A stretch of 63,953 bases of DNA, filler included, from Stramenopiles sp. TOSAG23-6 (lineage: Eukaryota): assembly GCA_900128565.1 (NCBI GenBank). It is 4 parts of 4 records of this genome, joined end to end, with 100 filler letters (N's around TTAATTAATTAA, not from the genome) between each part and the next. Parts side by side here need not be neighbours in the genome. Positions count along the whole stretch, not along the records: positions 50,349 to 63,953 come from LT636162.1; 3 more parts are not named here. One strand, given 5' to 3'. Positions 5,465-63,900 of this stretch are shown piece after piece (the first letter of the stretch is position 1; every line of letters starts with the position of its first letter). The notes below the pieces were generated by a model that did no database searches, was not told the DNA's origin, and saw only the letters and a program-made list of their open reading frames with translations. The position numbers were made by a program, and so were the translations under genes.

Positions 5465-6977
5465 TTATAATTTAACAAGTATTTGTGATTTTTTCATAGA
5501 TATAGGACATTTAGGATGAATAAAAAGAGGCTTACTCGTCATCTTTTTGTTTTCATTCTTATTATTTTCTCTTGCATTGCTATTCACCCAACTGAAATCT
5601 TTTAAATATGAAACACCGTCATTGCTATTATTAAAGTCTTTTGACATGTTAATACATTTTCTAGGACAATTACAATTTGGTAATTTTTGACGTTGATGAA
5701 GAAAGAGAGGATTTTTTTTTGGATTCATTCCTGGGATGTATTGTGAAAAAAAAAATGTAGTTAAAAATAATTGTTAGGTACGAAATTTGAATTTCGTATG
5801 AAAAAAACATTAAATTAGAAATTCATATAAAACGTCATAAAACGTACACCTGATAAACACTTGCTTCTTCATCACTCGTTGGAATTGTTATATTATTTGG
5901 AAGGGAGTGATTAATTGAATTAACTAATTCAGTTATATTCTTTGGTAAAATATACCCAATATCTTTACCAAATCCACTAAATAAACCAACAGCAGAAGAA
6001 GGAGAATAAGTATCTTCTTTACTACCAACAAATATATGACTGAAATACTCTATGAATTTTTTTTTCATATTTATAAAATTTGAATACCAGAAAGTCTTTT
6101 TGTTTTCACTTGGAATTGTATTAAGTACATGACTACTAGAAAACTCATTCAAGTAATTTCGACATTTTCCACTGGTTTGAAGAAAAATATTTTTCATATT
6201 TTGAAGTTTTTGATTTCGTGTATCATCATACTCCTGATCTTCAACACTACAACGTGAATTGCTTAATATATTTCTATCATCAAAAGAGTTCCATTCAATA
6301 CTGCTTTCTTTATCAAGTAAAAATTTGTCAAGACGACGAAGGAAATCTGGACAACTTTCAAGTAATTCTTCATAATAAACTGTATGAAGCCTCCTTTCTA
6401 TACCAACGAGAGGTTGCCAAAAATTAACTTCATGCCAGGAGTCATTTGTGTGTTTCCAAAAGGATAAAAGTAAAGCAATAAAAACTGGATCATTATTTAA
6501 GCATTCTTGTAATGTAGCATTGAGTGGACATGACTTATGTCCTCCATTAGGAAATAATTTGAGATAACACAACAACGACACAATAACATCCTCGACTCGT
6601 CTCTCAGTATATATAATTTTACCCACGCACTTCATATAACAAAGACAGTCACACCCCAACTCATTGTCTGCAGGAACATGATTAGTCTTTACCAAACGCA
6701 GAGGACCTTCATACCGCTTATATATTGTATCCATTAATAAATGAGTACCACTTCTTCTATGACTTGCAATGAAAATAGTCGGTATGTCACTAGTTATTAG
6801 TGACTTCCAATTTGAAGATGCACGAATACAAGGCCATTTTTTATCACAGTATTTAGAAAACCAGGGTACGGTAGAGGGGATACTAAATGATTCTTGAAAT
6901 ATGTGTTTCTGAATTAACAGAGCAAAAACAATTCCAAGAATTGTTATCATTGTAATTGTCTTCATTGATAAAATCAT
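5465..6977 (-). CDS. type II membrane sulfotransferase-like protein, 2 exons
   Basis: N-terminal TM; SHRRSGTHLL PAPS loop, KTNH, R..EDVIVS, YEEL; intron 5736-5847 joins the 5465 ORF. Confidence 0.75.
5736..5847 (-). mobile_element. family intron, GT-AT
   Basis: GTACGTTTT...GTACCTAAC...CACAATACAT; frame restored (YQV|PGMNP). Confidence 0.8.
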
Positions 6978-16916: not shown

Positions 16917-19900
16917 ATCATTTCACGATTTGATTTGACTTCAATAAACAAATTATACCAATGTCTCCATAGTTGTACTAAAAAATGATGTCGTTTCCGA
17001 ACTTTTTTTTCTGCTAATTTTCTCCGCCACTTTTTTATCATTCCTATTGCACGTTTTTTGTTGATTGAAAGTATAAATTGTCTCACACGACCACTTTTAT
17101 TAGACTTTTCATTCCATATATCAAAAACATTTGTCAATAAATTATTGACATAAAAAGCAACTGCAGCTGCATTTTTGCGTGACTGTAAAACACTCTTGAT
17201 TTTTCGTACTCTCCATTGCACGAAATATTTCGATATGGTACGACGAAGTTGTCCCAATAATACATGTATTTTGGAAAAATATTTCAAAAAAAATTTTGTT
17301 AGGTACAAAATTTCGTACGAAAAAAAATCATACAAAAAAAAAAAAAAAACATACATTCCTCGCGATATTCTTGGTGGATTTTCTGTGATTCAGGTAATTT
17401 ATCCACTTTTGAAAGTGTAATTTTCTATTTTGATGAAGCTGTCGCCATTCAAATTGAGATATTCGAATGTATTATGAAGAAATATTTATTTTTTACGAAA
17501 AAAAAAAAATTGTTAGGTACAAAATTTCATACCAAAAAAAAACAAAATTGAAATTAAATTTTAAAAAACGTACATGCCTACACGAAAAAATTTAAATGTT
17601 TTTGACAAACTTTTCAAATCCCACATGTAATAAATGGCTTCATCCCTTTCTCGTTTACATATGAGCATTTTAGCTTGTTTCCTCCATCCATTAAATATTG
17701 AAAGGACAGCGGCACGTACACTTTTTTCATTTACCTTTTCATACAAACCACCGATAATATTTCTTGTATTTACGAGCTTTTTTGCACGTCTGAAAAAACT
17801 GCGTTGTCTTATTTCAACTTGTGCACGTTTACTTATAGAATTCCGTATGTTTTCTGCATCTAATAGAGGAACTAAAAATGAATTCCAAACTTTCTTTAAC
17901 AATTTTATTCGATAATGTTCAATAGCTATATGTTTTCGACTCACGTCCTGTGTATATGTTTTGCTCTTATTAGGTGAAGGGAATTTGTCTTCATTCATTA
18001 AAGGCATCGAGTTATTGTTACTATTCATTGAATTTTTATTTCCTGAATGATCAATTGTCTTCGTTTCGACTTGTTTAGGAATATCAATATCTTTTGATAT
18101 GTATTTAAAAAAAATAGTTCAAATTTTATATTCGTTAGATATGGAATTTCGTATAAAAAAAAATGGAATTCATGATGAAAACGTATCGAATAAAAACTCA
18201 AAAAAAAAAACTTTTTTTTTGTTAGGTACGAAATTTCGTACTAAAAAAAATCATAATGAAAACGTACATAATTGTATCGAGTGGAAATTTACGTGCTCTT
18301 GGTGTTTCAGCTTCACTAGACTCGTTTTCGCCACTGGCAATTATCCAACCTTTTTCACAACCTTGATTGAATTCTTTCAAAATTCTAACCTTTGTTTTCA
18401 CAATACTTGCCGCATTAGCAATATGTTGCTTATACGTACTTGAAGTTTTTTTAACGGAAATTTTATGTAATATTGGAGTTTTTTGAGGACTACTAGTAAA
18501 CGTTTCTTTGTATTTTTGTGTGTCATTTGAAGCATTTTGAAGTGATTTTTTCTTTTTAGTAATGGATTGTTTTTTTATTGTTGGCGTTTGTAATGAATGT
18601 GAAGATTCGAAACTTTCTTTTTTTATTGTTGGCGTTTGTAATGAATGTGAAGATTCGAAACTTTCTTTTTCTCCAATATGAAAACTCTCCTTCAGTGATG
18701 CTGCGCTTGCTAAGGCATCTACTCGAAAACCAGATCTCAATGCTAGGCTTCGAGCTTTTCTTTGCGATTCTCTTTTTGGTGTACACACCGAAATGAACTC
18801 ATTTTCTAAAGATACGCTTAATACTTTTCTGCCCTCACTTATAGCCTTTGTCATTCGATATTGTTTTTCAGGGGTTTGTGTTATTGATAACGTTACATTT
18901 GGGGTAATCTTTTGTTTCTTTTTTGAAGTTGATAATGTGTTCCGTATAGGTGATGTAATCTTTTGTTTCTTTTTTGAAGTTGACAATGTGTTCCGTTTAG
19001 GTGATGTAGCATTTTGTTTCTTTTTTGAAGTTGACAATGTGTTCCGTTTAGGTAATCTAGTATTTTGTGACGTTTTTATTTCTGGCGAAGTTGTGAAAGT
19101 CGGTTTCACTTCGATCATTTCGTTTATAGAATTTACATTTCCTTCGATCATCTCGTTTATAGAATTTACATTTCCTTCGATCATCTCATTTATAGAATTT
19201 ACATTTCCTTCAATAACAGAGACACATACAGGTGATGATACTTTTTTACGTCTCAACATTCGTGAAGATTGCATCCTCTTTCGAATATCACTTTGCTTCT
19301 TTACAACTTGTGGTGATACTTTAGACTTTTGTAATTGATTTGATTTTCTAGAATCTTTGATTTTCTTCTTTTTGATAGATTTGGCAGAGTTTATTTTCTT
19401 TACTAATTTAGAGAATATTTCATCTTTAGAATCATCTAATTTTTCGTGTGTTTTATCATGTATAGACATTTCTAAATTATTTATTTCGTGTGTTTTATCA
19501 TGTATAGGCATTTCTAAATTATTTCTTGGTTTACGTCTTGCATTAAGTTCTGACTTTATCGTTGCTTCTATTTCTAATTTAAGTCCCGATGAAATATCTT
19601 CTGGTAAAATATCTGAATTTTGTTCATGTGTCAATTCTTGTGGTAGATTTCGTATCGAGTGTAAAATATCTGAATTTTGTTCATGTGTCAATTCTTGTGG
19701 TAGATTTCGTGTCGAGTGTAAAAGTGTGTGAGATTTCATTTGATTTGAGATTTCGATACGTCGATTATGAATTTCCGAATAGCTATTTTCTGCTTTTTGT
19801 TTTTTTTTACGTGTACTTTTATCATGTATCTTTGATGACACGTGTCTTTTCCGTCGAATGTGATTACACGATTGATTTTTTTTTTCGCTCCATTTTAAAT

Positions 19901-24540: not shown

Positions 24541-26348
24541 TCACTTTACGTGTGGATGGCAATATCTGTGCCTTCAATTGGATGGTTAAACGCTCTGGTG
24601 TATGGGCTTACAAATAAGCGTATTAGCCGAATGTACAATGATATGTTAAGACAATCATCGATGTATTCTGGTGCGTCTTCTAGATCGAGGGAAAGTGTAT
24701 GTTTTATTTTTTTTTTAACAAAAAAAACGATTTTTTTTTCGTACGAAATTTTGTACCTAACGATTTTAATGTTTGAAATATTTTTTCATAATCCATAGTC
24801 TTACTGAAGGTTTGTTGCAAAGACTTCCTCCAGGTTTAGAAGCAGCGCTTGCGTTAACTCCTAGTACTTCACATGAGCCTTATATTGAAAAAGAATTTGA
24901 CAGACGTCCTCTTACAACTAGTCGCCTGGCGAGTCATGGTACGTCAGATGATACTGTAGAGCTTGGACTTGGTCTATGTGAAGGAGTTGCAGCAGCTGTT
25001 GAAACTGGTAAATTAGTTTTAGGTAATGTTAGTCAAGAAAGTCAAAATGATGAACATTTAAATGAACATTTAAATGAACATTTAAATGAACATTTTATGA
25101 AAGATGGCGATAATAGTAGTGTTTATCGTGGCCATTCAATAACTAGATTTGCTAGTAATGAAGATGACCCAAACATAGGTCTTAATATAGACAATATGGT
25201 AGGCTTGAATAATAGAACAAGATTTCCAAGTATTTGTCGAACAACAACAAATACAAGTAATACATCAAATGAATTTCCAAGTATATGTCAAACAATGACA
25301 AATACAAATAATACAAATGTTTGTACTAGAAATGAAAACACAAATTGTTGTCCAAAACCAGATGTTGATAGTACTAATCTTCATAATGTACGTAGTAAAG
25401 ATAAATTTGTTGATAGTACTAATCTTCATAATGTACGTAGTAAAGATAAATTAGTCGAGGTTGGTGATACGAATTCAATTTCGAATGTACAAAGTGTTAC
25501 TGCTCTGGATAAAATGGATAAAATGTCGCCAGTGATACGATTTAGCCTTTGTAAAAAAGAAGAAACGAATAATGATAATGCATTGCCCTCGATTGCTACT
25601 GGTGTCCCAAAAAATGATTCTTTTAACTATGGTAATCCTTCAGATATTCTTGCTCTAGGTGGAATGAGCCGAGGAAATTCTATTCAGCAGATTGATTCTA
25701 ATTCGGATCTTACTAGTGTAAAATGTAATCAATACAAAAGCTTCAAAAGCAGTCGTCGTAAAAGTGGACCGTCAGGTGCTATGGCAAAATCTGGAGATAC
25801 TCTTATTCGTGTCACAAGTGAAAATAGCATTTCCACTCTTCCAAACAATCGACGTGTTAGTTTTAATCCAAAGTCATTGACTGAAAAACGAATTGATAAT
25901 GATAGAAATAGAAGAACATCAACACTATCGACGATTAGTGGATACTCAGGTGCAGCAATTAACACTCTTGGAAGAATTCGTGTTCGAAGTCGTGGGACGC
26001 ATTCAGGTTCAATGTATGTTTTATTTTTTTTTTTTTTACAAAAAATCGATTTTTTTTCGTACGTAATTTTGTACCTAACGAATATTTTTGGGAAATATTT
26101 TTCCAAAATACATGTATTCTAGTGATACACCGAAATCGAATAAATCGAAAAAAAGTAAGCGATATTCCGTCAGTCGACAAAAATATCGGTCACAATCACG
26201 ATATAGTTCTCGATTAGGCTCTGATGAATTTGAAGCCAATTTAAGAAATGAATTGAATCCTCTTGATTTAGTGGCTGGGTTAAATTTAGAGATTTCACCC
26301 AAGAAAAATAATCTGAAAAGAAAGGATATACATATTGCTAGTGAATGA
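24541..26348 (+). CDS. C-terminal part of a cAMP-receptor/GCR1-like GPCR (TM7 + long tail)
   Basis: VPSIGWLNALVYGLTNKRI resembles TM7/helix 8; two family introns restore frame; TM1-6 absent. Confidence 0.55.
24697..24796 (+). mobile_element. family intron, GT-AT
   Basis: GTATG...CATAATCCAT|AG; the adjacent AG is out of frame. Confidence 0.8.
26014..26113 (+). mobile_element. family intron, GT-AT
   Basis: AT|GTATG...CAAAATACAT|; frame restored. Confidence 0.85.
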
Positions 26349-28455: not shown

Positions 28456-31400
28456 TTATTTTATACCAGCTACTTTCAGTGGTGGTAAATTATTGTTTGC
28501 TATTTCGTCTGTTTCTGGCTCTTGTGGGTCTTCTTCATTCAAATCACTGCAAGATTCAACTTCATCATCATCGTCGTTTGTGTAAAGACCCGCTTCTTTC
28601 TTCAATGCTCTTACAAACTCTTTCATGTCAATATCTCCACTGTTATCAGTGTCGTATGATTGAAAATCTTTTGCATTGCCGATTCCAGAGGCAATAAAAT
28701 CATCTAATGATAGAGTTCCACTTACGTTGACCATACTTAAAAACTTTTCTTTGGCCTCAAGTTTTACAATTCTATATTTTAAATCTCGGACTAATTGAAC
28801 AAACTTTGCTGCATCACCTCGGGACATCAGAGGACCATCCTCGCCATCCATATCAACTGGACTGAGTTCCAATGCTCTAGTCGTATCAATTCGCATATTA
28901 ATGATATCATCTTCATATTTAGATAACCCATTTCGCGTCATGAACTTTGCCAAATCAGTAGCATTCCAAAGCGCGGGATTTCGTGGTGTAACACGTTTCT
29001 TCTTCCTAACTACAACAACAACACTATCTTTCCCGTCATCTTTATCACCACCAACAGGTGTATTTTCAACAACATCCTCCATTTCTTCATCGCGAAGTAG
29101 ACCCAACCCTTTGCGCAAGAATGCTGATGGCTGCCATTTTTTCTTTCCGCTACTTATATGTCCTCCTTTCCTACCCTGTGTTCGTGTTCGGTCTTTCTCA
29201 TTATACAACTGGCTATACATCAATCTCTGCCTATTCACTGATCCTATACTCCAATTAGATTTATCTTGGGAAGGTAACGTTGGCGCCGACGCTTGTTGGT
29301 GTAAAGAAGGTCCATAAGTTTCCTCACCTTCCAGTAGGTCTTGATACTCAATAAGTTTTCGAGTTTCAGGTGATGCTTTCGCTAGCATATTTATTTTTGC
29401 TTGTTTCTTTTCGTTGATGTATTTCTTTCGTGCCAATTCTTCGCGCTTTAATGTAGCTTCCCATTCAATATCAGCCGCATTCTTCTTAAATGTCTCACAA
29501 CCAAATATCTGTGCTACTACACGAGTCCGCTCTCGCGCATGTATTTTGTAAAAATATTTCAAATTGTTTTTTGTTAGGTACAAAATTTCGTACGAAAAAA
29601 AATCGAAATTGAAAAAAAAAAAACATACATGAGAAAGAGTTCTTGGAGTTGGTTCTTCAATCTTTCCACCACCCAATGATTTGTAGCTGTTTGATAATTC
29701 TGCTGCAGTGTGTAACCCATATGTTTCTTGAGGAGTTTCGACATCCTTCATTACACCTTTTACTTTATCGCCAAGATTTTCAACCAGCTCAAGCATTTTC
29801 TTAGCCCTGATTTCTTTTTCTTGTTTTCGAATTTCAGCATTCGCATCGAAATTCCAGTCTTTCGAGTCAGCTCCATGTAAATTTGGAGTATCAATTTTCC
29901 CTAATGCTGCGCCACACAATGAAGAAGATCTTCCTACTGTCCATAACTTTATCGTACAATCGCTTGATGTAGTTACAATTGTTGGTTTTGGTGAACAATA
30001 CACTCGTAGATCGCAAATTGATGATTCATGCCCTTGCCATTTTGCCATTACTTGACATGTCAGTTTCGCCGTTGTAGCTGGGTCTTGAGTTTTTGAATAG
30101 TCCCCTCTCCCGTTGTGTGACATATCTCGACGACACAAACTACGTGCAAAATAGTTGTGATCATTATGCCGCGGCCAAATCGATAATCCAAGATCACGAA
30201 TAACCATAGAAAGGTTCAAGCATCGAACCCATCCATTCGAATCTGCAACGCACAACACATGTATTCCTGCATGAACACCTGGTGAAATTTGTCTTCCACC
30301 TTCTGGTGAGTAAAATATATCCATTGCTGTGATTCCTACGCCACTTGCTTTATTACTTGATCTTCGTCTACTTGAATCGCCTTTCGGGCTTAAAATGCCA
30401 TAGCATTTACCTTTAGAAATACGACACGCCCATAACCAAATCCGCCCTTCAGAGTCAGCAGCGGCAACTAGTGGGTACGGATCAATGAATTTTACAGCTG
30501 TTATCTCTGCATCGGCTACCCGTCTGGGACATGGGTCTTCTACAATACAACTCTCAAAGTCCCACGTTTGCAAGCTTCCATCAGAACTTCCCGATGCAAT
30601 CAAAGATAAATTTCGCGAATGGTCAATACAAGTTATATCACCAGTATGAGCTTCTTTCACTTCACGAAGAAGTTCGGCTCGATCAACGGGTAGATCATTC
30701 CATACTCTAATTGAATGATCCCAAGATGCTGAAATAAAAACAGCGTCTCCACGACAATATACCAACGCACTAACTTCTGAATTATGTTTCATTTCTGCGC
30801 GCTTCATTCGTACTCCATTAACACAATTATTTATTGAAATTTCCCCTTCTACAGTACCAAATATATATTTTCTCTGTCTATCATCAAAGCACATTGCGGA
30901 TATAGAAGAAGAAACAACATTCTTATATTCCTCTAATAATGATCCATCCACTGAACTCCAAACTCTTAAATCGTGTCCTATCGGAGCGACAAAATTCATG
31001 AGAGTATCATTATAATGACCTGCTGAAGGAATAATACTCGTTGCATGTATAATCTTTGTCTTGAAGAAGTGCACCACATCTGATGCAATACACAACAAAG
31101 GGTCGCCAGCTCCCCAACGTCCTGGTATGATGCACATAGATCGAGGATGGAAACGCATACTTTTTGCTGCACATACATCTGAACCAAAAGCTTGAAGGCA
31201 CCTCTCAGAATCTAATATTGAGGAATCCAGTCGAACATCCCACCAGCGAACATGACCCTCTGTATCAACAGAATATGCAAAATGTGATTCTGCATCAGCA
31301 ACAACAGCGCATAGAGAATGATCGTGTTGATCTGGAGTATCTCGACCTAATACAAATAAAGGTTCAAAAGAAGCACCAGAGATATCCCATGCAAAAATGT

Positions 31401-36438: not shown

Positions 36439-38006
36439 TCATTTTCTCCGACGTGTCACTAAAAAGTTACTATATGCAGAAACGTCTCGACGGCTTCCTC
36501 TCAAAATGACTTTTCTGGATTCTTTTAATGCAATTTTCTCCAATTCAGAATTCGCTACATCAGCGGAAATCTCCTTCTCATGCATTTTTTTTTGAATATT
36601 ATATTCATTTTGCAGTTTTGAATTTTTCTTCATAAACTTTTCGGTCAAACTTTGATAACTTTCACATCTCCAAGCGGCAATCACACGTAGTTTATTATTT
36701 TGTTCGTGTGGTGAATTCTTTTTAGGGTTAGGAATTGGGTTAGAATCGATTAGATCTTCAGTAAGTTTCACTTGGAGATCATGTATCTTGGAAAAATATT
36801 TCAAAAAAAAAATCGTTAGGTACAAAATTTCGTACGAAAAAAAAATTAGAAATTGAAAAAAAAATAAAATCGTACATATAGACGTGGCACTCTTGTATAT
36901 GTAGTATCATTTTCATTCATTTCATTTGTTTGAATTCCATCTTCTGTTCCTAAATATCGTTGAATAAATTCAGAATTTGATACAAAGATAAGTCGGCGAA
37001 TTCGCTTGCCTTTTTCCAGTTTTGTATTTTTTGTATTTTTGGTAGTTGACTGCAAACTATTTTTTTCTGAATCCAAATTTGTACTATTTATATCATCTTG
37101 AATATTTGATTTTCCTGTTGTCATTACCTCTCCAGATTTTGGGGATTTAGGGCTATTTGGTGTAATATTGGTACTCTGGTTGCTAATATCAACATCATTC
37201 GGCATTCTATCAGCTGGACCTGAACTATATTTTTTAGATCTATGTGTCAAAGACCCCGTTCTATTTGTTCTACCAGCTTTATTTAATGATTTGGTACTAT
37301 TTGTTCTACCAGCTTTATTTAATGATTTGACCCTCCGACTATTTGCACGAGAACTTTTTTCTCTTCTCTTACGTAGCGCTAATGCTTTTTCCTTCTTTTT
37401 TTGTTGAATGCTGTTTTGGAGACGTTTTTTGATTTGAGCACGTACAACAGGCGGGTATCGATCTAAAGAAGTGAGGGACCCCAACATATCTTCAATATTC
37501 CAATATTTCCATAGTTGTTTTGAGGAAGGAAATCCAAGGATCCAGCTACGTACTTTTGTTGCTATTCGATGCTTAAATGCATCGTCGAATTTCTGTGTCG
37601 CGTTAGGAAATCCGATGAAGAAACTAATATAAAGTGTCTGTGACATGGAGTCCGAGTACCACGTCAACAACTGATCAATTACTTGGTTATCTGCACCTTG
37701 GTCACTAAGTTTTTGTATAGCTACAACAAAATTACGTGACATCCGTAATAACATACGGTCATTCATAATGCGGGTTTTTCTATTTGGAATCTCAATATCT
37801 TCAAAGTAAATGAACCAAAACGCATCTTTTTGAATTTTTTCACTTTCTTTTCCACAGAAGAAATCCTTCCATAATTTCCCCCTGGGTTTCGCTGAAACAA
37901 GAAAGTACATCAATTTTGGCAAATCAACCGCATCTGGTAGTGGAGTGGGATCGTCATTCGAGAATGTAAATTCTCCGTTACTCTCAACTGCAGTGAGTGA
38001 AAACAT
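36439..38006 (-). CDS. FAM227-like (FWWh domain) protein, 2 exons
   Basis: DAFWFIYF...RMSRNFV...YSDSMSQTLY..F..GFP...FDDAFK...W. Confidence 0.7.
36781..36875 (-). mobile_element. family intron, GT-AT
   Basis: AT|GTACG...CAAGATACAT|; frame restored. Confidence 0.85.
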
Positions 38007-38245: not shown

Positions 38246-49072
<10,827 letters not shown>

Positions 49073-50248: not shown

Positions 50249-50348
50249 NNNNNNNNNNNNNNNNNNNNNNNNNNNNNNNNNNNNNNNNNNNNTTAATTAA
50301 TTAANNNNNNNNNNNNNNNNNNNNNNNNNNNNNNNNNNNNNNNNNNNN
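50249..50348. other. artificial contig linker
   Basis: 100-nt N run with TTAATTAATTAA. Confidence 0.97.
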
Positions 50349-50745
50349 AATAAAAATATTACTTGAAGACTAAGATTTTTTGAGATATAGTCAGCGTGCC
50401 GGTATATATATATAGGACCTATATATGGTATCCTACCTCGTAGTGTTGCCGTGTCCTTTTCGAGCGAGGCTTACCCACGTATGACACAATAATGCCATCG
50501 ATTATTATAAGAGTGTGCATCTTACTCTTATTCCTAACATGGCAACGTCAAGTCATTGCTGCAACTATACCAATAGTTACAGCTTCTCCTGAGCCTGAGG
50601 AAGACATTCACGTAGCAACAACTGATGCTTCCACTGAGCCTGAGCCTGACGGAAAAAAAATCGACGTCAACCCTAAGCAAACTATTGCTAGCGAGTTTAA
50701 GGGTGCGCAGCAGATTATATTAAGAGTGATGCAGCGCTGAATTTA

Positions 50746-53700
50746 TTGACGCCTACAGTGTGGGAAGACGAACATGATCTCGATCATGTAATTCGCGGTC
50801 AGATATCAGAACATTCAGGTTTTCCAGAAGAAGTGATAGACGCTTTGAATCTACCTTCAAAAGATTCAGTGCACAACACGATATGGAGGGGGAGTAGCGA
50901 ACATCACGACATGCCTGATCATTATGAAATGCCCGAACATCTATCACCCGCGCAGCGTGACTCGATGCAACGCCCACAGGACGTGAGTGACGACCAGTGG
51001 CACGCTCTGGCAATGCCGGTCGATGCCTCGATCAAGAGGAATGAGCTACTGCTCATCGAGGATGCAAGGCATGGCAAAGTGGAAACAGATATTTCAAAAC
51101 CGATATTTTCTCCTTCTAAAACGTATACTTTTCTATATTTATTTGCACTATTTGGTCAACCGGAAGCATTTGAAAAGCAACTAGATCGTATTATAGGTGG
51201 CGGTATGGATATGATAGAGGAGTATACCAAAGAAATTGCAGAGTTATTTCTGTTAGTAAATAAATCTTCAAGGGTCGACGGATTTCCATTTGTACATGGC
51301 AAAGGGACCGCATACCGAAATAGTATTCGAGAAAAACTTCAAATGATACTTATACGAAGCATTCCACCATTTCTTGCGGCAGCCGTCAAGTTAGGTGATG
51401 TTGCATCTGTTTTAATATTTCAAGAGTTTATAGACAAAAGTTTACGAGGAAAGGTTTTAGTGAATGCTCTGAGTATTCTATATGATTCCCTTTTTTATAA
51501 ACATACTGTGTCTCCTGTGGAAAGGACACATAAGTTAAACTTCATGCAATTTTTGGATGATAGCAAACTAACAGAAGGAAAAGAGTATACGGTATCAGAG
51601 AACGGTAGTACCGCTGTAAATAATGCTTTCTTGGATCAAAATGGATTTTATATCCCTATATTCGACAAAAAACGATCGGACACAGTTTGGGTAAAACAAA
51701 ATTTACCAACCATCAAATCTGATCCTTCTATTGGTACTAACTTTGTGTGGCGATGGACTGAAAAGACACTTGACACTGATGTTTTGACGTATTGGGATAT
51801 GAAGCAAAAACATCAAAAAAATGTCCCCATCATTGAGGTCAGTAATCATATGATGATAGTGTTGATCTTAATGAATCGAGAAACGTTTGACGAAGATTTA
51901 GGTAAGGATATGGAAGAACTTAGATTAATGATAAAAGCACAGAATGAAGCCATACCGACTATGGATATAAACAAATTAGATAGATTTAGAAATCATTTTA
52001 GGGAGTATATCAATTTTGAATATCTTGACGCTGCCATACAAGGTATACCTGAAATTCCTGAATATTCCTATCTATACATGATAGTATATCAATCTATAAT
52101 TTTGCACATAAAACAATTAAGTATGGATGAAATCGAGACTTTGCTTTGTGAAAACGTTTCACCAAAAGTACCACATCATCCAGAACTGCTTACCTTTATA
52201 TTCAAATTATTATCTAAAGAACAGGTTGTGGAGTTATTTGGTAAAAATCAAGAGTTGGAAAAAAATATTATGATGCTTGCTTTGCAGGAGGATGATTACT
52301 TTTTCCTTGAAGAAATTATTGACAAGCATAATGAGGGTTATATTGATGCTGTAGGCCGACGATTATCCTTATCTGATGAAGAAGAATATTCTTTCCCAAT
52401 AGGTCTTCATCCAGAGTCGATAAAGTACATGATTTCAAGGAGAAGCGTTTTTTTCAAAAATCATAGAGGTGATGACTTTTTAACAGTGCTTGAATATGCA
52501 GTTGCAAACTTGGATATGGATCTAGTAGAATTTCTTTTGGAAGAGGGATCAAACCCATATAAGAATCTAAATCGCCGGAAGGTGTTTGAATTCCTTTTAG
52601 GTTTGGGAAATCCTTTTGGGATTGACAATGTACGAGATACACTCGTCTTGGAAATAGCAACATTATTAATAAAACATGGAGCTGCAGATGTTTTTGTGGA
52701 TATTACTCCAGTAGAATTGTATGAAAAATACGAAGGATTACAGAGATTGCTCAACTCAAAAGATCAACTGGTACTGAGCTTTCCAGGATCTCAGGAATGC
52801 AGTATTTCAACATATTGGTTAAAGTTGGTTGTCGAATGCACTAAACAGCCAAGTCATGATATACATCCGTCTAATGTAGACCGCGTTGAGTATATTCGTC
52901 GTATTGGTGCTGATTTGAAGGGCAATGAGCCTATAAGTATACTTCATGAAGCTGTCATGGGAGGTGATTTTGAAGTGATTCGCAATTTACTTGAACATAG
53001 CTGGCAATCATCTATTGTCAATGAAGTCAATGAACACGGCAAAACACCTCTGGATATTGCGACTTCTTTGTATATAGAGCACGAAAACAAATATGGCCGT
53101 TTCGTTTCTTTTTTCACCAAGGAAGAAAAAAGAAGACGAGAGAATATAGAAATGATTCGAGACACAATAATTAAATATAAGGGAATATCATGTTTAAAGA
53201 GACAGAATTATGTTACAAGCGCGAAAGAAATGTTTCTGAAAATGGAAGCTTCACAAGAAACTCTTAAATCGGCTCTAATGGAGTTTCAAAAATTGGAAAA
53301 GAAAGAAAAGAAATCATCGGGTGGAAAGAAGAAGAAAAACAAAAACAAAAAGAAATCAAAGAAGAATGAACCACGTGATATAATGCTGAAAAAAATAAAG
53401 AATCTTGAGGCTGATGGGTTAATATTTAAAGACAAGTATTTAAAATTCTCATCAATGCTAGAGGAATTTGGAATTCCTAAAACAGATATTTTCAAGGAAA
53501 ATACTAAATTGTGTCACACTCAATTGGAGCCTGAACCTGAACATGAAGTACAATTGGGATCACCGCCCCATACTAAGATGTATGCCAATTCGGGAGAAAC
53601 CTGGCAAATTGAGCCTGAACCTGAACATAAAGTACAATTGAAAGAAATCTGGCAATTGGGTAAACCTGGGTCCGGGTCTATTGTTGAATGGATGCAGCTA

Positions 53701-56700
53701 CCGGTGGAACAAATCGGTCGTTTTGAGCAGTGGTATAAACACATAGGAAGTAAGATCGATACAATTGACATTTTACAAAAAGTTGGTTCGGGCAAAGGTA
53801 GCTTTGGTCAACAGGTGTGGAATATGTTCACCAAAGAACCCAAGAAGGTGAAAATATTTCTTGATGGAATATTCAATTCAAGCGGGCTGGTGGACGCGGA
53901 ACACCATGACAACTTATCATCTCCACGAACTTTAGGGAGTATATCAAAGAACGGCGCTCTCCTAGAGACATGGATAGCTTCGTGGGTAAAAATTTTGCAA
54001 TCCATGAGATCTGCTGAGACTAATGACAATGTCCTTTCTTATGCAGCAAGTCATACACAAAGAGAAACTGTAAGAAATTTACTTGAATATCCTTGTTTTC
54101 AAAGACTTATCGACGATGTGAATCATAATGGCTTTACTGCATTACACATTGCTGCTGGCGTCGGCGACATTGGTATGGTAAAATTACTTCTTTCGAATGG
54201 TGCTGATCCAAATATTAAGGCCAAAGTCAATTTCGATACAAGATCATGTGCTCTTACTCCATTAACCATTTCTGCTGTTGATGGTTCAACAGAAATTGCA
54301 CAATTACTTATTTCAAATGGCGCTGATGTAAACATTGTATCGGAAAATGGAGTTTCTGCGTTGACTTGTGCTATTAACTTCAAACATTATGATTTTGTAA
54401 AAATGTTGATGCAATCATCAGAGCTAAACTCGGAAATTGTAAATAAAGAATTTCTCAGTAAAAAGAAAATAAAAACTGTTCCCCTAATGCGTGCGATAGC
54501 TGTCGACCACCCCAAAGATATTGTAGAACTATTAATCAGGAAAGGTGCAAATGTTGATTATACAGATGATGCTTTGGAAACGCCACTTACGTATGCTTGT
54601 AGGAAAGGAAATAATAATTTGTCACGATTACTAATAGAATCTGGAGATAAGGTATATCTAAAAAAAATGAAAACAATTGACGACTTGACCCCATTAATGC
54701 TTGCCTCTCAGTATGGGATGATAGATGTTGTAAAGTTGCTTCTTTTGCATGGTGTAGATGTAAATTTTGAAAGAAAAAGTGATAAACGTAATGCTTTGAT
54801 TTATGCTATCATTGGTAAGCACACTGAGATTGCGCAACTTTTAATTGACAAGGGAGATAAAAAATTTGTGCAAACAGAACAAGGTTTCACCCCGCTTATG
54901 TTTGCTGCACAAAGAGGTCTTTTGGATATTGTAAGCTCATTACTAGATAATGGTGCTGATATTAATGTGATGATTACAGATTCAAGTACTGCATTAAGTT
55001 TTGCGTTAAAATGGAGTGGACAGGGTGGTGTTGCATCAGTTGAAGAATTATCAAGAAAACGAGATGTTGTAAGACTACTTATTGCTCGAGGTACAGTTAT
55101 TAGAATCAAGGATTGGTTTTTGGTAGTTGAGGAATGGTTACCAAGAAAACAAGATATTGCAGAACTAATTTTTGCTCAAGGTACAGTTATTGGAAGCAAT
55201 GAGTTGTTGGAAGTTGAAACGCTTCAAAATGAAATTGTGCACATGCTGCTTGAAGGGGACGCAGATCCCGACTGGACTTTAGCTAATTGCGGGAGTAACT
55301 TTACAGCACTTATTGTTGCTTCTGTAGTAGGATCTGCAGAAATAGTTGCAACATTACTTAAAGCAGGTGCTGATCCCAACAAGCTCGATAGACATCGTAA
55401 TTCCGCTCTTATGCTTGCTGTAAAAAATGGACATCTAGAAATAGTTGAAAACCTCATTGCTAGTGGTGCTAAAATTAGTCATTCTGGTGGTCGATGGGGA
55501 AAATCTAAGGTGGAATTGACTGTCTTAGCTCTTGCTCTACTCGCTAGGTTGACAGACTATGCAATTGTAGAAATATTAATTGCCAATGGTGCTAATGAAG
55601 ATGATCTAGTCTCTGTTGAAGGTTTTGATATGAGCGATGACATTTTATTCATACGAATGCTCAGAATTATCGATAATAGTAGTCCATCATCACCATTTGA
55701 TTGGTTACATCTAGTAGGTGATGCTTCAGATGATAGCAGCTATGAAAATAATGTCGCTGAAAGTAGTGGCGATGATGAAGCAATCAATGAGGAAGAACTA
55801 ATATTAATTAATCTTTACAAAGGTTACCATGGCGCATCTAATGTAGATTTGTTTAAAGACAAGAAAGAAGCCGAAGAAAGAATTAAAAAAGAAAAGAGGA
55901 GAAATGATACTACATCAGTAAGACCAACAAATGATACAGTAGCGGGTGACAGTGATATAGATGTATCACGAGCACTGCCCAAAACAAGTGATATTGAAAG
56001 GACGTTATTTATATACGATAAAGTTGAAAAATGGCGTAGGAATCCAAAAAATGCACATCTTATGAAAAGTTTTGCAAAGCATTTACAATACATTTCAAAT
56101 GGTGAAATACGGAGTGGGTATAAACCATTAGAAACTGTTACTGGTGTAATGGGTAATAAATTATGGGAAGCCCCTATTACTGGAAAGCAAAGAATTTTGT
56201 TTGAATTTCCTGAAAGGCTAGAAAATGGTACAATATCTCCTGGACATGTATGGGACGTAACTCCGCAGCACGATGGTCATGGTGGTATTGCAGATCGTGC
56301 CGAAAAACTAACATCAACAGCGACACGTGCCAATTTGAGAAAGCAAGCATTGATTAGAAAGGATGAGTTATCAAAATATGGAAGTAGGTCACTGGAAGAT
56401 GCTCATGATATTGGTTACGACAAAAAATTGTATGGTAAGGGTCAATCGAAAAAATACGTATTGAAATCGAATCATTCAGGCTCATTGGACTGGGAATCTC
56501 AATTAAGTGAAAAGGATTGGAAAATTCATCAAAGGTTGTCGGACGAAGAGCGAAAATGTGTAGATATTGCAGGATTTTGTGAATTGGACGGTCGAGCCGG
56601 AACGGGGAAGACAGAGATCACAATGTTTAGAATGATACTTAATGCAAATAAAGCTGCTGGAGAGGATCATTTTATCGCATTGAATGAAGGAAGAAGAATG

Positions 56701-58925
56701 TCATCTCATGTTGATACATTTGCTGCAGTGGAACCAGAACCAGAAATACAAGAACCAGTACCAGAGTATCATCAATGTCGTCAAGTATTTATAGCAAAAT
56801 CTCTACATTTGAGTGAAAGTGCTGAAGATCAAATGCCTGATGCATATTTACATGACCCTTTGACATCAATGGAGTTTTTACCAGTAACCATTAATCCTTT
56901 TGAACAAGAATGGCTTAAATCTCGCGACAAAAAAAAGATTTCTTTTGTGGAAAGAATTGAAAGAGAAGCAAACGGTGATATGTCTAAAGCACTACGCCAT
57001 GCTATTGACTTTGAGGAATCTGCGGCTAAACATGGTGGCCATATTGACTATAAAATGTTTAAAGAGCAATATGAAAACTTTACTGTTGGAAAATCAAAAC
57101 ATACGTCTAGTGTACTACAAGGTACCTGTGAATTATCTGCAGAAGTTGTGTGGACGCAAATAAATACAAATATCAAAGGTTCATTTCAGTCGTTTATGGA
57201 GGGCCGAGAATTAACTCTTGACGAATATCTAGCCCAGGGCACACGAAAGGGATTGTTACAGTTTAATGCTAAGCAAAAGAAAGCAATTTATGCCGTATTT
57301 TTGAGGTACGAATCTTTAAAAACAAGTTCTTCATTTGATGGTGTAGATTCTGGGAGGAAAAAAATATGGTATGATGATATGGATCGAATTTTAGATGTTG
57401 TTCGACGTTTGAAAAAATTCGAAAAACATTTTCCTTTTGTCATAGAATTTGGTAAGAATACAATGTGGAAGAGCGGTCGACACCCATTTGATTATATATT
57501 CATAGATGAAGTTCAAGACTTACCTCCAATTATTACTGCTCTTGCTCGTTGTGTTGTCGGAGGTAGTCCAGATAACATTACTGTAGCTGGAGACCTTGCA
57601 CAGCAAATAATACCCGGAGTAGCATTTACTTTTGACAATATTCATAATATTATCGCTCGTTCTGAAGATGGTTCCCGTATTGTAGGTTTTACAGCATCGT
57701 CGAAGGAAGGTGCGAATAGAAAGCTGCAAATAAATTATCGTACACATGCTCAAATGATTGAAAGTTCCTCTACGATCATGTAGGTTTTATTTTTTATCAA
57801 TTTCGAATATATTTTTCGTACGAAATTTTGTACCTAACGATTTTCTTTTGAAATATTTTTCCAAAATACATTCGCCTTTTAGAAAACTATTTTCAACTAC
57901 CAAGGACTCATGCTGATACCAGTGCTATTACAGAGAGATCTGGGCCTACACCTAAAATATGGCGTACAAATAATAAAGAACTGATAGATGAATTAGCGCC
58001 TGGAAATGTTCTACTTTTCAAAGATGAGCAATCAATTCAAAGATTTGAGAGAGAGTTTGAGGAAAGATTAGAAATGATACAGAGAGAAAAGGAAAGGTTA
58101 CAATCAATAAAAGCAGATCCAAAAAGGGTTGGCAAGACGGTCCATCTTGATTCTCAATTAAAAGAATTGCAAATAAGAGAAGAAGCAAGCATAAGGCGAC
58201 AGGAGAAGGCGAAGACGTACACAAAACTTACTGTACGTGAATCGAAGGGTTTAGAGTATGGCAGAGTTGTTCTTGTAAATTTTTTTTCATATGCTGATGA
58301 GAAGTATTGTAAATACTTTCGTGCATTATTTACTGGGACAGTAACTGATAGGCATAAAAAAAGTTTTGAGGATGATCCTGATTTGTATGATGGACTTCGT
58401 AATGAATTGAGATTGTTCTATGTAGGAATGACTCGAAGCATTACAGAATTATATATAGTTGAAACAAGTGAAAATAGTTGTCAGAAATCAGCGTTTGACT
58501 TCTTTTTAAAAGCAAGAAACGAGGACGATGGCGAAGTGCGTAAATTATTCGAAAGGTATGCTCCAACAAAAAAAGGCATACANGGTAGTCTATTTACTGT
58601 ANGTATTAGTAAATCAAGTTTAATCAAACAAGGGTCACAATTGATGATTTTATCAAATCAATCAAAGGAACATAGTCTCAAATATTCAACTGAAGCAAAA
58701 AAGTTATTTGCATTAGCCGGACGATTGGACCTAGTTGATAAAATAGATGCTTTTGCNTCNTGTACTTCCTTGCCAGAAGGTACTAATNATGATGTTTTTA
58801 TTGAGTATATTGATACATGTATGAAATTGGGTTTATTTGGCAAAGTCATTGAAGTAATTAAAGCAAGAAAAAATCCAAAGTTTTTATATATTATACAGAA
58901 GATACAACGTTTGTCTGCACCCTGA
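50746..58925 (+). CDS. TRANK1-like ankyrin-repeat / UvrD-like SF1 helicase, 2 exons; true start uncertain
   Basis: many ankyrin repeats; GRAGTGKT, DEVQD, AGDLAQQI, INYRTH, then after intron ESKGLEY and ELRLFYVGMTRS. Confidence 0.85.
57780..57871 (+). mobile_element. family intron, GT-AT
   Basis: AT|GTAGG...CAAAATACAT|; joins helicase motifs IV to V/VI in frame. Confidence 0.92.
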
Positions 58926-60107: not shown

Positions 60108-61601
60108 TTATTTATTCATTTCTCTTGATAATGTTGCAGCAATCAAGAGACTTTTTGCAATCCTTGTAATCGTTCCAGCTTTACCATCACCTGAAATAAT
60201 ATCCAAAGAAGGATCAAATATTTTCTGTTCTAATAAATCATCTAAAGNAATCCGAAGTTGTTTAAATACTACAGCAGTCCTAGGAGGCACTTGNATATGT
60301 ATTACGAAAAAATATTTCNTNAAAAANAATNTTTAGGTATTTTGTTTTTTACGAAATTTGAATATAGTAAAAAAAAAATATCGTCCTAAAAAAAAAAAAC
60401 ATACATTAATCCATCCATCAATAACAATACGCCTTTGACTGTGTAACACATCAACAGCATCGTGTCCAGCTGCAAATAACAATAATGCTTCGGGTGGTAC
60501 CATGGTAAGCTCTCGAAGGTACACTTTTGTAGTTCGAATTTTGTCAAGATAGATAGACCATAAACTATCACTAGCAACACCAATGCATTGTGAAAAAATA
60601 TNTTTTTTTGTAAAATTTGTTAGNTACGAAATTTCGTACGAAAAAAAAATACTTCGAAATTGAANACGTACACTCCTCGATGATCACTANTTTTACATGC
60701 ATGNGCAACAGCTGATGATGGATGAAGATGAACAATCTCACCACTTTGTTCTGTGACGATTCTCCGAGATTTTGTAATGGACGGTTTTTGAACATTGACA
60801 ATACAAGGGTATATATTGNGAAAAAATATTTAAAAAAAAAAGAAATCGTTAGGTACAAAATTTTCTAACNAAAAAAAAAAAATAAAATTCATCATTAAAA
60901 AGTACATAAACCTGCGACAATAACAGCTTTCACAACAACAGCAATATTAGCGTTTTCATTNAATTCAAGTGAAGTGTCCAAATCTCTTGAAAAAGACATT
61001 TTACTCTTTTTTTTTGTATGTTTCAAATTAGTTTTTTGTTTAGATGGTAGGAAACCTATANTGCGTAAATGTCCCATCAAATCTTGTTTTTGATTTCTCA
61101 TACTACACAGTGTATACATTGTGAAACAATATATATTTTTTTTGGTTNAAAAAAAAACGTTAGGTACATAATTTCGTATGAAAAAAAAATACGTAAAGAA
61201 TTCAATTTTGAAAANGTACATGATAATTTAAGAAATTTTTCCGACAAAATTGTTGAGAATACTTATTCCCATGTATATCGACCACATTTCGCCATGTCCA
61301 GTATGCGTTTACTATTATTAACAAATCCGATAGCATTTCATTTTTTTCTTGCCAGAAAGAAGTATTGTGAAAAAATATTTCAACACAAATCTAAAAAAAA
61401 TTGTTAGGTACGAAATTTCGTACGAAAAAAAAACTAAATTAGAAATTCATATAAAACGTACAACTTTTTGCAAATGAAATACGAGCTCGATCGGCCTCTG
61501 CACGTCTGCCCATAGGTACTACAAANGGTGATTTGGCATTCATTGCAACGGCAATAGTGGAAATTGGATCTAGACATCTAAAAATTGTTCCATAAATCAA
61601 C
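60108..61601 (-). CDS. DEAH/RHA RNA helicase C-terminal part (HA2 + OB fold; DHX36/57-like), 6 exons
   Basis: MLIYGTIFRCLDPISTIA, SDLLIIVNAY, AGLYP, IHPSS, YLRELTMVPP, IDGWI after removing family introns; helicase core absent. Confidence 0.88.
60297..60404 (-). mobile_element. family intron, GT-AT
   Basis: restores DGWIN|IQVPPRTAV. Confidence 0.85.
60583..60671 (-). mobile_element. family intron, GT-AT
   Basis: GTACG...CACAATGCAT|; frame restored. Confidence 0.8.
60811..60905 (-). mobile_element. family intron, GT-AT
   Basis: restores conserved AGLY|P. Confidence 0.9.
61114..61219 (-). mobile_element. family intron, GT-AT
   Basis: restores NFLNYH|TLCSM. Confidence 0.88.
61360..61461 (-). 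mobile_element. family intron, GT-TT
   Basis: TT|GTACG...CACAATACTT|; frame restored. Confidence 0.85.
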
Positions 61602-61703
61602 ATATATTTTGGAAAAATATTTAAAAAAAAAAAAACTAAAATTTGTTAGGTACAAAATTTCGTACGAATAAATATTTCGAATTTGAAAAAAAATAAAACA
61701 TAC
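61602..61703 (-). mobile_element. family intron at pyruvate kinase / DEAH helicase junction
   Basis: 5' flank is PK (NETDG), 3' flank is DEAH (MLIYG). Confidence 0.85.
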
Positions 61704-62735
61704 CATCAGTTTCATTTAGAATATCTTGAAAATTAGATAGCCCTTCTTGATTTTCAATTTTTGCAATAATCTTGATTCGAGATGATTGATCGCCAAGTAG
61801 TTTTCGAATCTCCAAAATATCACTTCCTTTGCGAATGAAAGATGCAGCAATCATATCTATTCTGTTNTTGCATCCCCAGTTGATAATATCGTGTTTATAT
61901 CATTTTCAAAAATATTTCAAACATTCAAAATTTGTTAGGTCAAAANTTTTTTTTTTTTTTTTNTTTTTTNTTTTTTTGTTTTTTGTTTTTTTGTTTTTTG
62001 TTTGTGTACAACAAGAAATTGAATCTAGGGTTAGGATTTGAAAACGTACATCTTTTTCTGTTAAGGTAGGAAGATCTACAATCACTCCGGGTAAATTCAT
62101 ATTCTTTCTTTCACCTATGGTTGCATCATTCATGACAGTAACCCTGATACAAGTATTATAAAAAATATTTCAATTTGTTTTTCTGTTAGGTACAAAATTT
62201 CGTATGAAAAAAAAACAAATTTGAAATTCAAAGTAGACAACGTACAACCATTTTCTGGATGACAACTATCGACTGTCAGTACAAGAGCACCATCTGCAAC
62301 TAAGATTTTCTGTCCCACTGCTACTGACGTTGGAAGACTCTTATATGATACAGCTAAACGAGAACTGTTACCCTTGAATGAATAATCCGTGGTCAACTCT
62401 AACTTTTGAAGAGCTTTAAATGTCACTTTGCCAGANTCACTTTCTAGAAATCCCGTTCGGATTTCAGGACCCTTTGTATCCAACATGATTGCAACATTTG
62501 CATTAGGTCGTTGTTTTATCGCTAGCTNTAAACGCTGAAGGCACCCGAGGTGTCCTGCATGATCTCCGTGGGAAAAGTTAAAACGAGCAACNGTCATGCC
62601 TTTATCAATGAGTTTCAATAGCATTTCGACTGACCAACAAGATGGTCCAAGTGTGCAGACGATGCGCGTCTTCCTTTTCGTGATATCCGTTTCATGTGAT
62701 ATAGTATCCATATTAATTTTAACATTGTCCCCCAT
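61704..62735 (-). CDS. PYK: pyruvate kinase, N-terminal ~half
   Basis: [53 protein letters not shown]; ends at NETDG. Confidence 0.96.
61897..62049 (-). mobile_element. family intron, GT-AT
   Basis: restores LTEKD|KHDI. Confidence 0.88.
62151..62245 (-). mobile_element. family intron, GT-TT
   Basis: TT|GTACG...ATAATACTT|; restores [11 protein letters not shown]. Confidence 0.88.
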
Positions 62736-63135: not shown

Positions 63136-63900
63136 ATGTCAAAAAACGCAAAAAACGAGACAGAAAAGACAAAAAACTCATCGAGCTCCTCTGAATTNAC
63201 AATTGAGCATAGTATTGGAGTGTTAGATGTCGAAGATATTTTGACGGAGACTGAAGCAAGGGAATTTTCCAGTATACATTTGGATGATAATTTACTTGCT
63301 GCAGGACGTGAAGATAATGGAACTTATTTCACAGATACATTCTTTGCTTTAGCTGCAATACAAGAAACTAAGGAGAATGTACTATTTGCATCAAATTGTC
63401 AGTTGAGTCTTTGTCTGGAAAGACAGCGAGAACTACTCACTCGCAAAGGTGCTCGTTTACTAATGACTAGAAAAGCAATATATGTGAATGATATTGTTTT
63501 GGAGTTTCCAGAACAATCAGAAAAATCCGGAAAATCTTCAAAATCTTCAAAAAATTCATCAAATGAAGATGATCATGTATCATTTTTTTGTCATCAACTT
63601 ACACTGGAAAACTATTTATATCCGTCTGAGGGTGGTACGTTTTCATCATGAAATACTTTTAATTGTTTTTTTTCGTACGAAATTTCGTACCTAACAAAAC
63701 AACAATTTTTTCGAAATATTTTATCATAGTATATGAGCTGTTTTTGATATTCATTTACTAGAGTGTGGGAAAGAGGAAAAATTAGAATTCTGGAAAACAC
63801 TCGCCAGTTTTGTACCTGTGAAAACAAACAAAGAATACAAAGCATTAAAAATGGCAAAAACGATCCACAAGAAAGCTGAGACTGTTGTTGGAGAGGTGAT
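63136..63900 (+). CDS. hypothetical protein, multi-exon, runs off window
   Basis: exon 1 63136-63634 joins open exon 63735-63900. Confidence 0.6.
63635..63734 (+). mobile_element. family intron, GT-AT
   Basis: GTACG...CATAGTATAT|; nearby AG would give a premature stop. Confidence 0.8.

Follow-up and report, generated by a model that had tools for sequence, protein, structure and literature searches.

The window analysed here comprises 63,953 nucleotides of Stramenopiles sp. TOSAG23-6 (assembly GCA_900128565.1), and the element in question is a 16-nt palindrome placed directly before a CTAAC branch point at 57813-57838. This palindrome recurs through the window as the core of a mobile, introner-type family of introns, presumably of transposon origin. 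Restored reading frames and homology together indicate that the units of the family would be removed as introns running from GT to AT. For the palindrome itself we give an even chance to the reading in which its right part is a splicing signal used by each intron and its left arm is a passenger derived from the founder, the hairpin not being required in resident introns.

Positions 57813-57838 read TTTTCGTACGAAATTTTGTACCTAAC, with the 16-mer at 57818-57833 and CTAAC at 57834-57838. The 16-mer is the T variant (position 12) of the perfect palindrome GTACGAAATTTCGTAC and would carry a G5-U12 wobble if folded. With up to two mismatches, GTACGAAATTTYGTAC was identified at 25 sites (47 strand matches) against 0.11 +/- 0.40 in dinucleotide shuffles, and 0 of 100 shuffles reach the count. 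Eleven of the 25 sites are exact, four of them with the perfect palindrome (C at position 12) and seven with the T variant. CTAA[CT] follows directly on the sense strand at 23 sites, the sense of a copy being defined by the strand that carries CTAA[CT] after the palindrome. The sequence-only reading of this DNA had claimed that the palindrome is fused to CTAAC in most copies and that its commonest variant, C12 to T, only turns a G-C pair into G-U, and both observations hold. Whole-unit profile matches extend down to E = 1e-17 and more diverged copies were recovered; the profile search and a census anchored on the branch point gave 37 aligned cores.

The unit is 86-112 nt long and, in the aligned copies, is formed by GTAYGTTTT, a variable T-rich spacer, a T-run followed by C, the palindrome, CTAAC-RA, another T-run, (G)AAATATTTT, YCAMAATAC and a final AT; the 3' part after AAATATTTT is CAAAATACAT. 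Most introns within the window are members of this family, and their host genes are unrelated: mTOR, an ankyrin/UvrD helicase, pyruvate kinase, a DEAH helicase, a WD40/EF-hand protein and others. Two motifs of the spacers, neither of them a splice signal, are also enriched, TTTTCAATTTCRAAT with 19 occurrences (4.4 +/- 1.9 expected) and GTTTTCATCATGAA with 13 (2.5 +/- 1.5 expected), and in neither case does any of 100 shuffles reach the count. They mark two subfamilies, A with 11 introns and B with 16 introns that are more diverged. Since motifs outside the splice signals are enriched, the similarity is homology of copies and not merely a shared strict splice consensus. A foldback element was rejected, as dyad symmetry is present only in three short islands (the termini, ATTTCRAA/TTTGAAAT and the centre) and both halves are T-rich on the sense strand.

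The case for removal as introns comes from the flanking frames and from homologues. For 29 units the long open reading frames (ORFs) on both sides join only on removal of the segment that starts at G[TC]A.. and stops at the unit's own 3' terminus, and all 29 lie in the sense of the gene. The frames fix the removed length modulo 3 and not the exact register, the register with 5' GT (GC once) being the most uniform. In this register the terminal dinucleotide is AT in 25 units, TT in two, AG in one (42121-42267) and AC in one (33040, of ambiguous register). AG sites close by are out of frame wherever this can be checked (57880, 24795 and 63729). At the example unit, only the acceptor after ACAT joins ORF 50701-57783 to ORF 57852-58925, the TAG at 57880-57882 being out of frame. 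Two units lie outside the frame test: 33282, beside an N run, and 61602-61703, between exons of two different genes.

Homologues agree with removal at four junctions, two in mTOR and two in pyruvate kinase. The alignment of the mTOR piece with 3jbz_A falls into three blocks, and the gaps between them coincide exactly with units 46748-46840 and 47194-47295; removal of the former unit yields ..LNQA/WTVYY, to be compared with human ..TQA/WDLYY (the slash marks the junction). On the Pfam PK model the three ORFs of pyruvate kinase meet at positions 147/145 and 180/180, with a gap-free junction after removal of 61897-62049. For the pyruvate kinase piece the closest relatives with a name are stramenopiles (56-67% identity); in a search that covered proteins of 118-377 residues, no relative exceeded 67% identity and the top-scoring match had 64%. 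An intron of the U12-type AT-AC class is defined by 5' ATATCC and a branch site TCCTTAAC located 10-26 nt from the 3' end. This class was rejected, as the introns here have GTAYGTTTT as 5' consensus and place CTAAC ~33-45 nt before their 3' end, and 10 of the 29 units have no AT before GT.

The flanks of the units have the appearance of an insertion footprint. In 19 of the 29 units the upstream exon and the intron end in the same two bases (AT/AT in 17, TT/TT in 2), and TT lies upstream of both TT-ending introns, a coincidence with a chance of ~0.003 (computed for n=28). The termini of the unit are inverted only as GTA..TAC. A start in GTA and an end in TAC, with the repeated dinucleotide, would fit a short element that duplicates a 2-bp target; the flanking dinucleotides resemble such a target-site duplication, and its downstream copy would become the 3' end of the intron. 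In 11 AT/AT units of the flank listing, tallied by eye, C precedes the upstream AT in six and G follows the intron in six, which would suggest a C/AT/G target. Neither an empty site nor an autonomous element was seen within the window. No transposase gene was identified in the window either, the only helix-turn-helix (HTH)-like match being 49200-50063 (- strand), an intron-less ORF with three Myb/HTH-like repeats of ~60 residues (WS.AELAKLKEL..NPRPTY..MAD.M..EFP.SRNYT). This ORF was rejected as a transposase, its HTH_32 score being below the cut-off and its product a triple Myb-like repeat protein.

Conservation is not uniform along the palindrome. Identity to the consensus in the 27 aligned introns is 0.5 at G1, 0.9 at T2, 0.9 at A3, 0.7 at C4 and 0.6 at G5 of the left arm, ~0.9 in the centre AAATTT, 0.7-0.9 in the right arm and 0.8-0.9 in CTAAC. 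The preceding T-run, AAATATTTT and the 3' end are likewise at ~0.8-0.9. The sequence-only reading had described the palindrome as better conserved than its surroundings, and this is true only in part. In subfamily B the mismatches to the consensus are 23/79 in the left arm, 6/79 in the right arm, 3/80 in CTAAC, 5/96 in the centre AAATTT and 137/490 in the spacers. The left arm differs from the right (p=0.0008) and does not differ from the spacers (p=0.89), and the right arm is better kept than the spacers (p=4e-5). Over all 27 introns the left arm has 27/134 mismatches and the right arm 9/134 (p=0.002). The same reading held that decay at the rate of the rest of the element would speak against a selected stem; the left arm of subfamily B decays at that rate (0.291 vs 0.28 per site), and the right arm does not (0.076).

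An RNA stem under selection, as proposed from the sequence alone, is not supported by these rates, and neither by covariation nor by the kinds of change observed. The covariation analysis was run on the 37 cores, over stem pairs 1-16 to 6-11 with 500 shuffles, and did not rise significantly above controls. Paired cells were 72.1% vs 70.0 +/- 1.1 in shuffles (24/500 reach) and 70.2% with the structure slid by -2; the covariation score was 0.125 vs 0.102 (51/500 reach) and the pairs changed on both sides were two (120/500 reach). Pairing is therefore explained by the palindromic consensus and not by co-variation among copies. The second commonest variant, G1-to-A, makes an A·C mismatch, and the minimum changes on the family tree are at least 7 for G1/A and at least 5 for C12/T, so that pair-breaking transitions are at least as frequent as those giving G-U. 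As T12 is common to most of subfamily A, C12-to-T is largely one inherited event. Other changes among the 37 cores were T11-to-C (A·C) in three copies, A6-to-T in two and G5-to-C in two.

The hairpin is weak and absent from many copies. A run of at least 5 contiguous pairs that reaches the branch box or stops beside it is present in 22 of the 37 cores; the other 15 have at most 4, and ten of these 15 hairpin-less copies are frame-verified introns, including 47194-47295 and 61897-62049, which are supported by homology. Folded alone, the hairpin has -5.7 (C variant), -3.6 (T variant) or -1.2 kcal/mol (A1 plus T12), and 8 of 13 diverged cores are no more stable than -0.8 kcal/mol. The folds of ten whole introns do not exceed those of shuffles in stability (z +0.52 to -2.29), and the stem is in the minimum-energy fold of four and partially in that of one more. 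Base pairing between the left arm and the 5' splice site was dropped as a candidate, since an eye tally (C/G 6, U·G 6, U-A 1, C·A mismatch 5) revealed no covariation.

The block that is kept, AAATTTYGTAC-CTAAC, begins at A6 of the palindrome and includes CTAAC. RTAC also stands directly before C[TA]AA[CT] in diverged introns without a recognisable left arm, for example at 44962, 45712, 47252, 27636, 38982, 60336, 5078 and 48839. Three longer introns had been noted earlier as lacking the palindrome; 46117 and 47509 do lack it, and 42121 contains a displaced variant, CATAGAAATTTCTATG. In the reading preferred here, the working part of each resident intron would be AAATTTYGTAC plus CTAAC as an extended branch-site box, RTAC-CTAAC, probably recognised by the U2 small nuclear ribonucleoprotein (snRNP) and the branch-point binding protein during branch-site selection. 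The left arm GTACG, which makes the palindrome and a possible 6-bp hairpin, would be inherited from founder copies and not kept after insertion; an arm with this history would mean that resident introns do not require the hairpin for splicing. A function of the hairpin, if there is one, would then lie at the level of the spreading element. The branch-box sequence at issue for pairing with U2 is AAATTTYGTACCTAAC. The universal GUAGUA of U2 can pair with CUAAC in the usual way, and by comparison the upstream UAC would be out of register by one C. An Rfam scan of the whole window at the gathering score gave 0 matches, hence no U2 or other small nuclear RNA was found.

Several results weigh against a left arm that is only a passenger. 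In subfamily A the mismatches are 4/55 in the left arm, 3/55 in the right arm and 63/374 in the spacers, the left arm being somewhat better kept than the spacers (p=0.07). In a cis/trans permutation of folding energies, the two arms of one copy pair better than permuted arms (-2.15 vs -1.63 +/- 0.16 kcal/mol, 0/1000 reach), and the same permutation on contiguous pairs is marginal (57/1000); a preference of this kind can arise without selection from mixing young intact copies with old decayed ones. Re-symmetrised variants are present at 46799 (TATGAAAATTTCATA, C4-G13 turned into T-A) and in 42121 (CATAGAAATTTCTATG). Template-switch mutation re-symmetrises near-palindromes and could be a selection-free source of such symmetric variants. 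New hairpins occupy the same place in 5777, with an enlarged stem of -5.9 kcal/mol, and in 44962, with an unrelated one of -3.6 kcal/mol. The 13 diverged cores jointly fold at -15.1 vs -6.9 +/- 3.3 in shuffles (1.65% reach), copy 5777 alone contributing -5.9 of the -15.1. The left arm is present in the consensus of both subfamilies despite their different spacers, which hints at a constraint on propagating copies, the pattern expected for a sequence needed by them only. The subfamilies also separate on the tree, with weak support and no starred branch. The per-site mismatch ranges (centre 0.05-0.08, right arm 0.06-0.08, CTAAC 0.04, spacers 0.16-0.29) include spacers whose alignment in T-runs is unreliable, a bias that tends to make the arms look better conserved and does not favour the conclusion of left-arm decay. 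Finally, the evidence base is one 64-kb window with 37 mutually related cores.

The alternatives to a passenger left arm differ in where they place the function of the palindrome. An RNA hairpin 5' of the branch point that aids splicing, by presenting or insulating the branch site between U-tracts or by stacking on the U2-branch helix, is rather unlikely. Such a hairpin would let a fresh copy be spliced whatever exon it enters and might make up for the lack of AG at the 3' end, and the need for it would relax once the copy is fixed. Introns that end in AG number only about four here. The abutment of palindrome and CTAAC in 23 copies, the G-U pair retained by T12, the sense orientation of all copies, the energy test in which no permutation reaches the own-arm value, the compensated or replaced hairpins at 46799, 5777 and 44962 and the slight excess of conservation in the left arm of subfamily A all agree with it. 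They have to be set against non-significant covariation, a left arm that decays like spacer in subfamily B, changes to A·C (G1-to-A in at least 7 events, T11-to-C in 3 copies) that are no rarer than those to G-U, and a weak stem that is missing in 15 of the 37 copies (10 of them frame-verified) and enters only 4 of 10 minimum-energy folds; the stem would also sequester the conserved UAC of the branch box. A recognition site in DNA or single-strand DNA for a mobilising enzyme, either a transposase dimer site or the hairpin of a single-strand nuclease, is unlikely too. It would be needed only by propagating copies and would decay in resident ones, the right arm surviving as the branch box, and this agrees with a left arm found in both subfamily consensuses yet lost in copies, with the equal exon and intron dinucleotides in 19 of 29 units (both TT-ending introns included), with the inverted termini GTA..TAC and with flanks that tend towards C/AT/G. 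The palindrome followed by CTAA also recalls Helitrons, for which the part of PMC10288648 consulted describes insertion at AT/TT and recognition of hairpins by Rep. The window, however, contains no transposase gene (the Myb-like repeat protein being the only HTH-like match), and the palindrome is central and not subterminal. Moreover, the flanking dinucleotide appears duplicated, unlike in Helitrons, there is no 5' TC, the most numerous subfamily has the asymmetric T12 variant, and the re-symmetrised variants could stem from template switching.

Two further explanations dispense with a mobile family or with splicing. It is very improbable that the units are ordinary old introns of an intron-poor genome that share extended splice signals of great strictness. 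Strong conservation of 5' site, branch box and 3' region does recall yeasts, but similarity runs through the spacers with their two alternative enriched motifs, lengths are narrow (86-112 nt), the flanks are footprint-like, and one copy contains a contig end and another a chimeric join. Elimination at the DNA level, in the manner of the internal eliminated sequences of ciliates, is extremely improbable. Although precise removal of a unit with one copy of the flanking dinucleotide restores the frames and the 3' end is not AG, all 29 units are in sense orientation, a yeast-like GTAYGT and CTAAC are present at the usual spacing, one relative has a canonical ACAG end, and the organism has the standard genetic code and long ORFs.

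A further reading is less likely than not, and we hold it tentatively. The palindrome might serve the element while it spreads, as opposed to the resident intron, by forming a hairpin of the sense strand (as RNA or single-stranded DNA) that either makes fresh AT-ending insertions spliceable or is the recognition hairpin of a machinery inserting ready-made introns at AT/TT. If true, this would be a new spliceosomal intron architecture, GT..AT with the 3' end taken from the target duplication. The differing fates of the arms separate what the resident intron needs (the branch box) from what the spreading element may need (the left arm). If RNA confirms the family, a compact marine protist genome would hold an introner that draws a non-AG 3' splice site (AT or TT) from the footprint of its own insertion. 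Such a family would be a natural test of how far 3' splice-site recognition can depart from AG and of how a mobile element packages signals to become an intron. Gene finders requiring AG would mis-model most genes of this organism.

Table. Coordinates of the example intron, its parts and other family introns in the window.
Feature	Position	Strand	Remarks
Example family intron, 92 nt, GTAGGT..ACAT	57780..57871	+	Splits ankyrin + UvrD-like helicase gene; Pfam matches on both sides
5' splice site GTAGGT (family consensus GTAYGT)	57780..57785	+	27-intron alignment
16-nt palindrome, T variant	57818..57833	+	Hairpin alone -3.6 kcal/mol
Left arm GTACG, decayed in older copies	57818..57822	+	Mismatch rates
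Conserved block AAATTTTGTAC + CTAAC, read as extended branch-site box	57823..57838	+	Mismatch rates
Conserved GAAATATTTTT block 3' of branch point	57850..57860	+	Alignment, mismatch rates
3' end CCAAAATACAT	57861..57871	+	Non-AG terminal AT repeats last two bases of exon (AT)
Family intron, GTATGT..ACAT	17264..17354	-	Exact T-variant palindrome at 17303-17318
Double-unit intron, 169 nt	18099..18267	-	Perfect palindrome 18226-18241 and degenerate second unit, branch point 18138
Family intron, GTATGT..CCAT	24697..24796	+	Site after ATAG close by is out of frame
Family intron	26014..26113	+	Palindrome with A6-to-T
Family intron	29539..29628	-	Exact T-variant palindrome
Family intron	36781..36875	-	Exact T-variant palindrome
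mTOR intron, GTACGT..ACAT	38936..39037	+	Broken palindrome ATAGAAAATTTTATAC, branch point CAAAC
mTOR intron	39113..39198	+	Palindrome ATACGAAATTTTGTAC
Longer mTOR intron, canonical ACAG end	42121..42267	+	Displaced perfect variant palindrome CATAGAAATTTCTATG
mTOR intron, GTTTGT..ACAT	46748..46840	+	Compensated variant palindrome TATGAAAATTTCATA
mTOR intron, GTACGT..ACAT	47194..47295	+	Left arm lost
Pyruvate kinase intron, GTACGT..ATAT	61897..62049	-	A-run in place of left arm
Family intron, ACTT end	61360..61461	-	Perfect palindrome; upstream exon ends TT
Pyruvate kinase intron, ACTT end	62151..62245	-	Upstream exon ends TT
Family intron, ATAT end	63635..63734	+	Perfect palindrome; site after CATAG out of frame
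Family intron	5736..5847	-	Enlarged palindrome ATACGAAATTCAAATTTCGTAC

Some copies have particular features. The double-unit intron 18099-18267 is formed by two tandem units, in which the 3' ATAC of the first runs directly into the GTTTT of the second with no intervening dinucleotide; the first palindrome is perfect and removal of the 169 nt is in frame. Units 20179-20268, 29539-29628, 46748-46840 and 47194-47295 have a length that is a multiple of three and no in-frame stop, so they are read through in stop-to-stop ORFs (for example 18222-21485, 28456-32442 and 46237-47532) and their retention would not truncate the protein. A degenerate palindrome, TTACAAAATTTCGTAC on the + strand, was identified at 33746-33818 without CTAAC after it, in non-coding sequence upstream of ORF 33871-34548 and beside a TGACGTCA palindrome; it may be a decayed unit or an intron of a 5' untranslated region.

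The host sequence has ~33% G+C and long ORFs in the standard code. The recognisable genes are CCDC39, mTOR, the protein with ankyrin and UvrD-like helicase domains, pyruvate kinase and the C-terminus of a DEAH helicase. The gene at 50701-58925 (+ strand) has more than 2,700 codons, with many ankyrin repeats and a UvrD-like helicase domain, and intron 57780-57871 is its sole interruption. The window is a chain of at least four contigs joined by 100-base spacers (N44, TTAATTAATTAA, N44) at 16758-16857, 33528-33627 and 50249-50348. The contig break at 16858 lies inside the family copy 16858-16917, as expected if the repeat breaks assemblies, and many single N are present at 58.5-63.2 kb. The copy at 61602-61703 (- strand) joins exons of pyruvate kinase (to ..NETDG, Pfam PK position 243 of 328) to exons of the DEAH-helicase C-terminus (HA2_C, OB_NTP_bind); the remainder of both genes is missing and the reading frames do not fit, so that this copy is probably an assembly or amplification chimera across the repeat. 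Two seawater metatranscriptome runs share sequence words with the window (shares 0.10 and 0.08), which is only a hint.

Searches elsewhere returned no relatives of the family. A scan of viral contigs for the palindrome plus CTAAC gave 0 matches. A metagenome scan with the 3' motif, chosen to avoid bias towards the palindrome, gave 116 loci, all of them chance matches, with 0 matches to the family profile at E <= 1e-3 and the palindrome in 0 of the 116. In the body of literature searched, neither the palindrome motif nor a GT..AT introner family is described, and the motif strings occurred only in unrelated primer lists.

Among known systems, the branch-site box of yeast, TACTAAC, pairs with the GUAGUA of U2. 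The family resembles it in that young introns as well as old ones keep RTAC-CTAAC, ~33-45 nt before the 3' end, and differs in the extra C between TAC and TAAC and in a conserved block that extends 7 nt further upstream (AAATTTY). Structured introns, whose helices draw the splice signals close to each other, are a second point of comparison, with helices between the 5' site and the branch point in yeast and stem-loop introns in Trichomonas and Giardia. The nonconventional introns of euglenids and diplonemids have non-GT-AG ends and an intron-internal pairing which, in the parts of the two sources consulted, is proposed to aid splice-site recognition (PMC6221363, PMC12621601). The present family has intron-internal pairing in common with structured introns and non-GT-AG ends in common with the euglenozoan cases. 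Here, however, the stem is local and upstream of the branch point, without bridging the splice sites, 5' GT and branch box are of conventional type, and covariation is not significant.

Helitrons have a 5' TC and a subterminal 3' hairpin 10-12 nt before a terminal CTRR, and make no duplication. According to PMC10288648, they insert at AT or TT and their Rep enzymes recognise hairpins. The palindrome followed by CTAA and the AT or TT at the insertion flanks are alike, whereas here ~35-45 conserved bases follow a palindrome in central position, the dinucleotide appears duplicated and a unit of ~100 nt starts with GTA. Membership in the Helitrons was rejected, given the central palindrome plus CTAA, the GTA start, the apparently duplicated dinucleotide and the finding of no Rep/helicase gene in the window.

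Fungal introner-like elements were reportedly described by van der Burgt et al. in 2012. As far as the consulted part of PMC3609843 goes, they are multi-copy introns with a stable predicted secondary structure that degenerate into ordinary-looking introns. The present family is likewise formed by multi-copy introns, but no whole-intron fold rises above shuffles (z +0.5 to -2.3), the local hairpin is a weak one of 6 bp and the flanks point to insertion of DNA. Introners, on which Huff et al. are said to have reported in 2016, appear to be the closest known kind, and the family would be a variant of them. They are transposon-derived intron families of Micromonas, Aureococcus, dinoflagellates and others (Gozashti et al. 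2022, 2025; PMC12130899, in part), and the words palindrome, hairpin and branch point are absent from the portion of PMC12130899 consulted. Both comprise many near-identical short introns in unrelated genes, in sense orientation and with their own splice signals. A flanking duplication feeds one splice site of introners, and the apparent duplication in the present family would do likewise. The present family is distinguished by a 3' end in AT (or TT) instead of AG, by a window in which no autonomous element was seen, and by the 16-nt palindrome that abuts the branch point.

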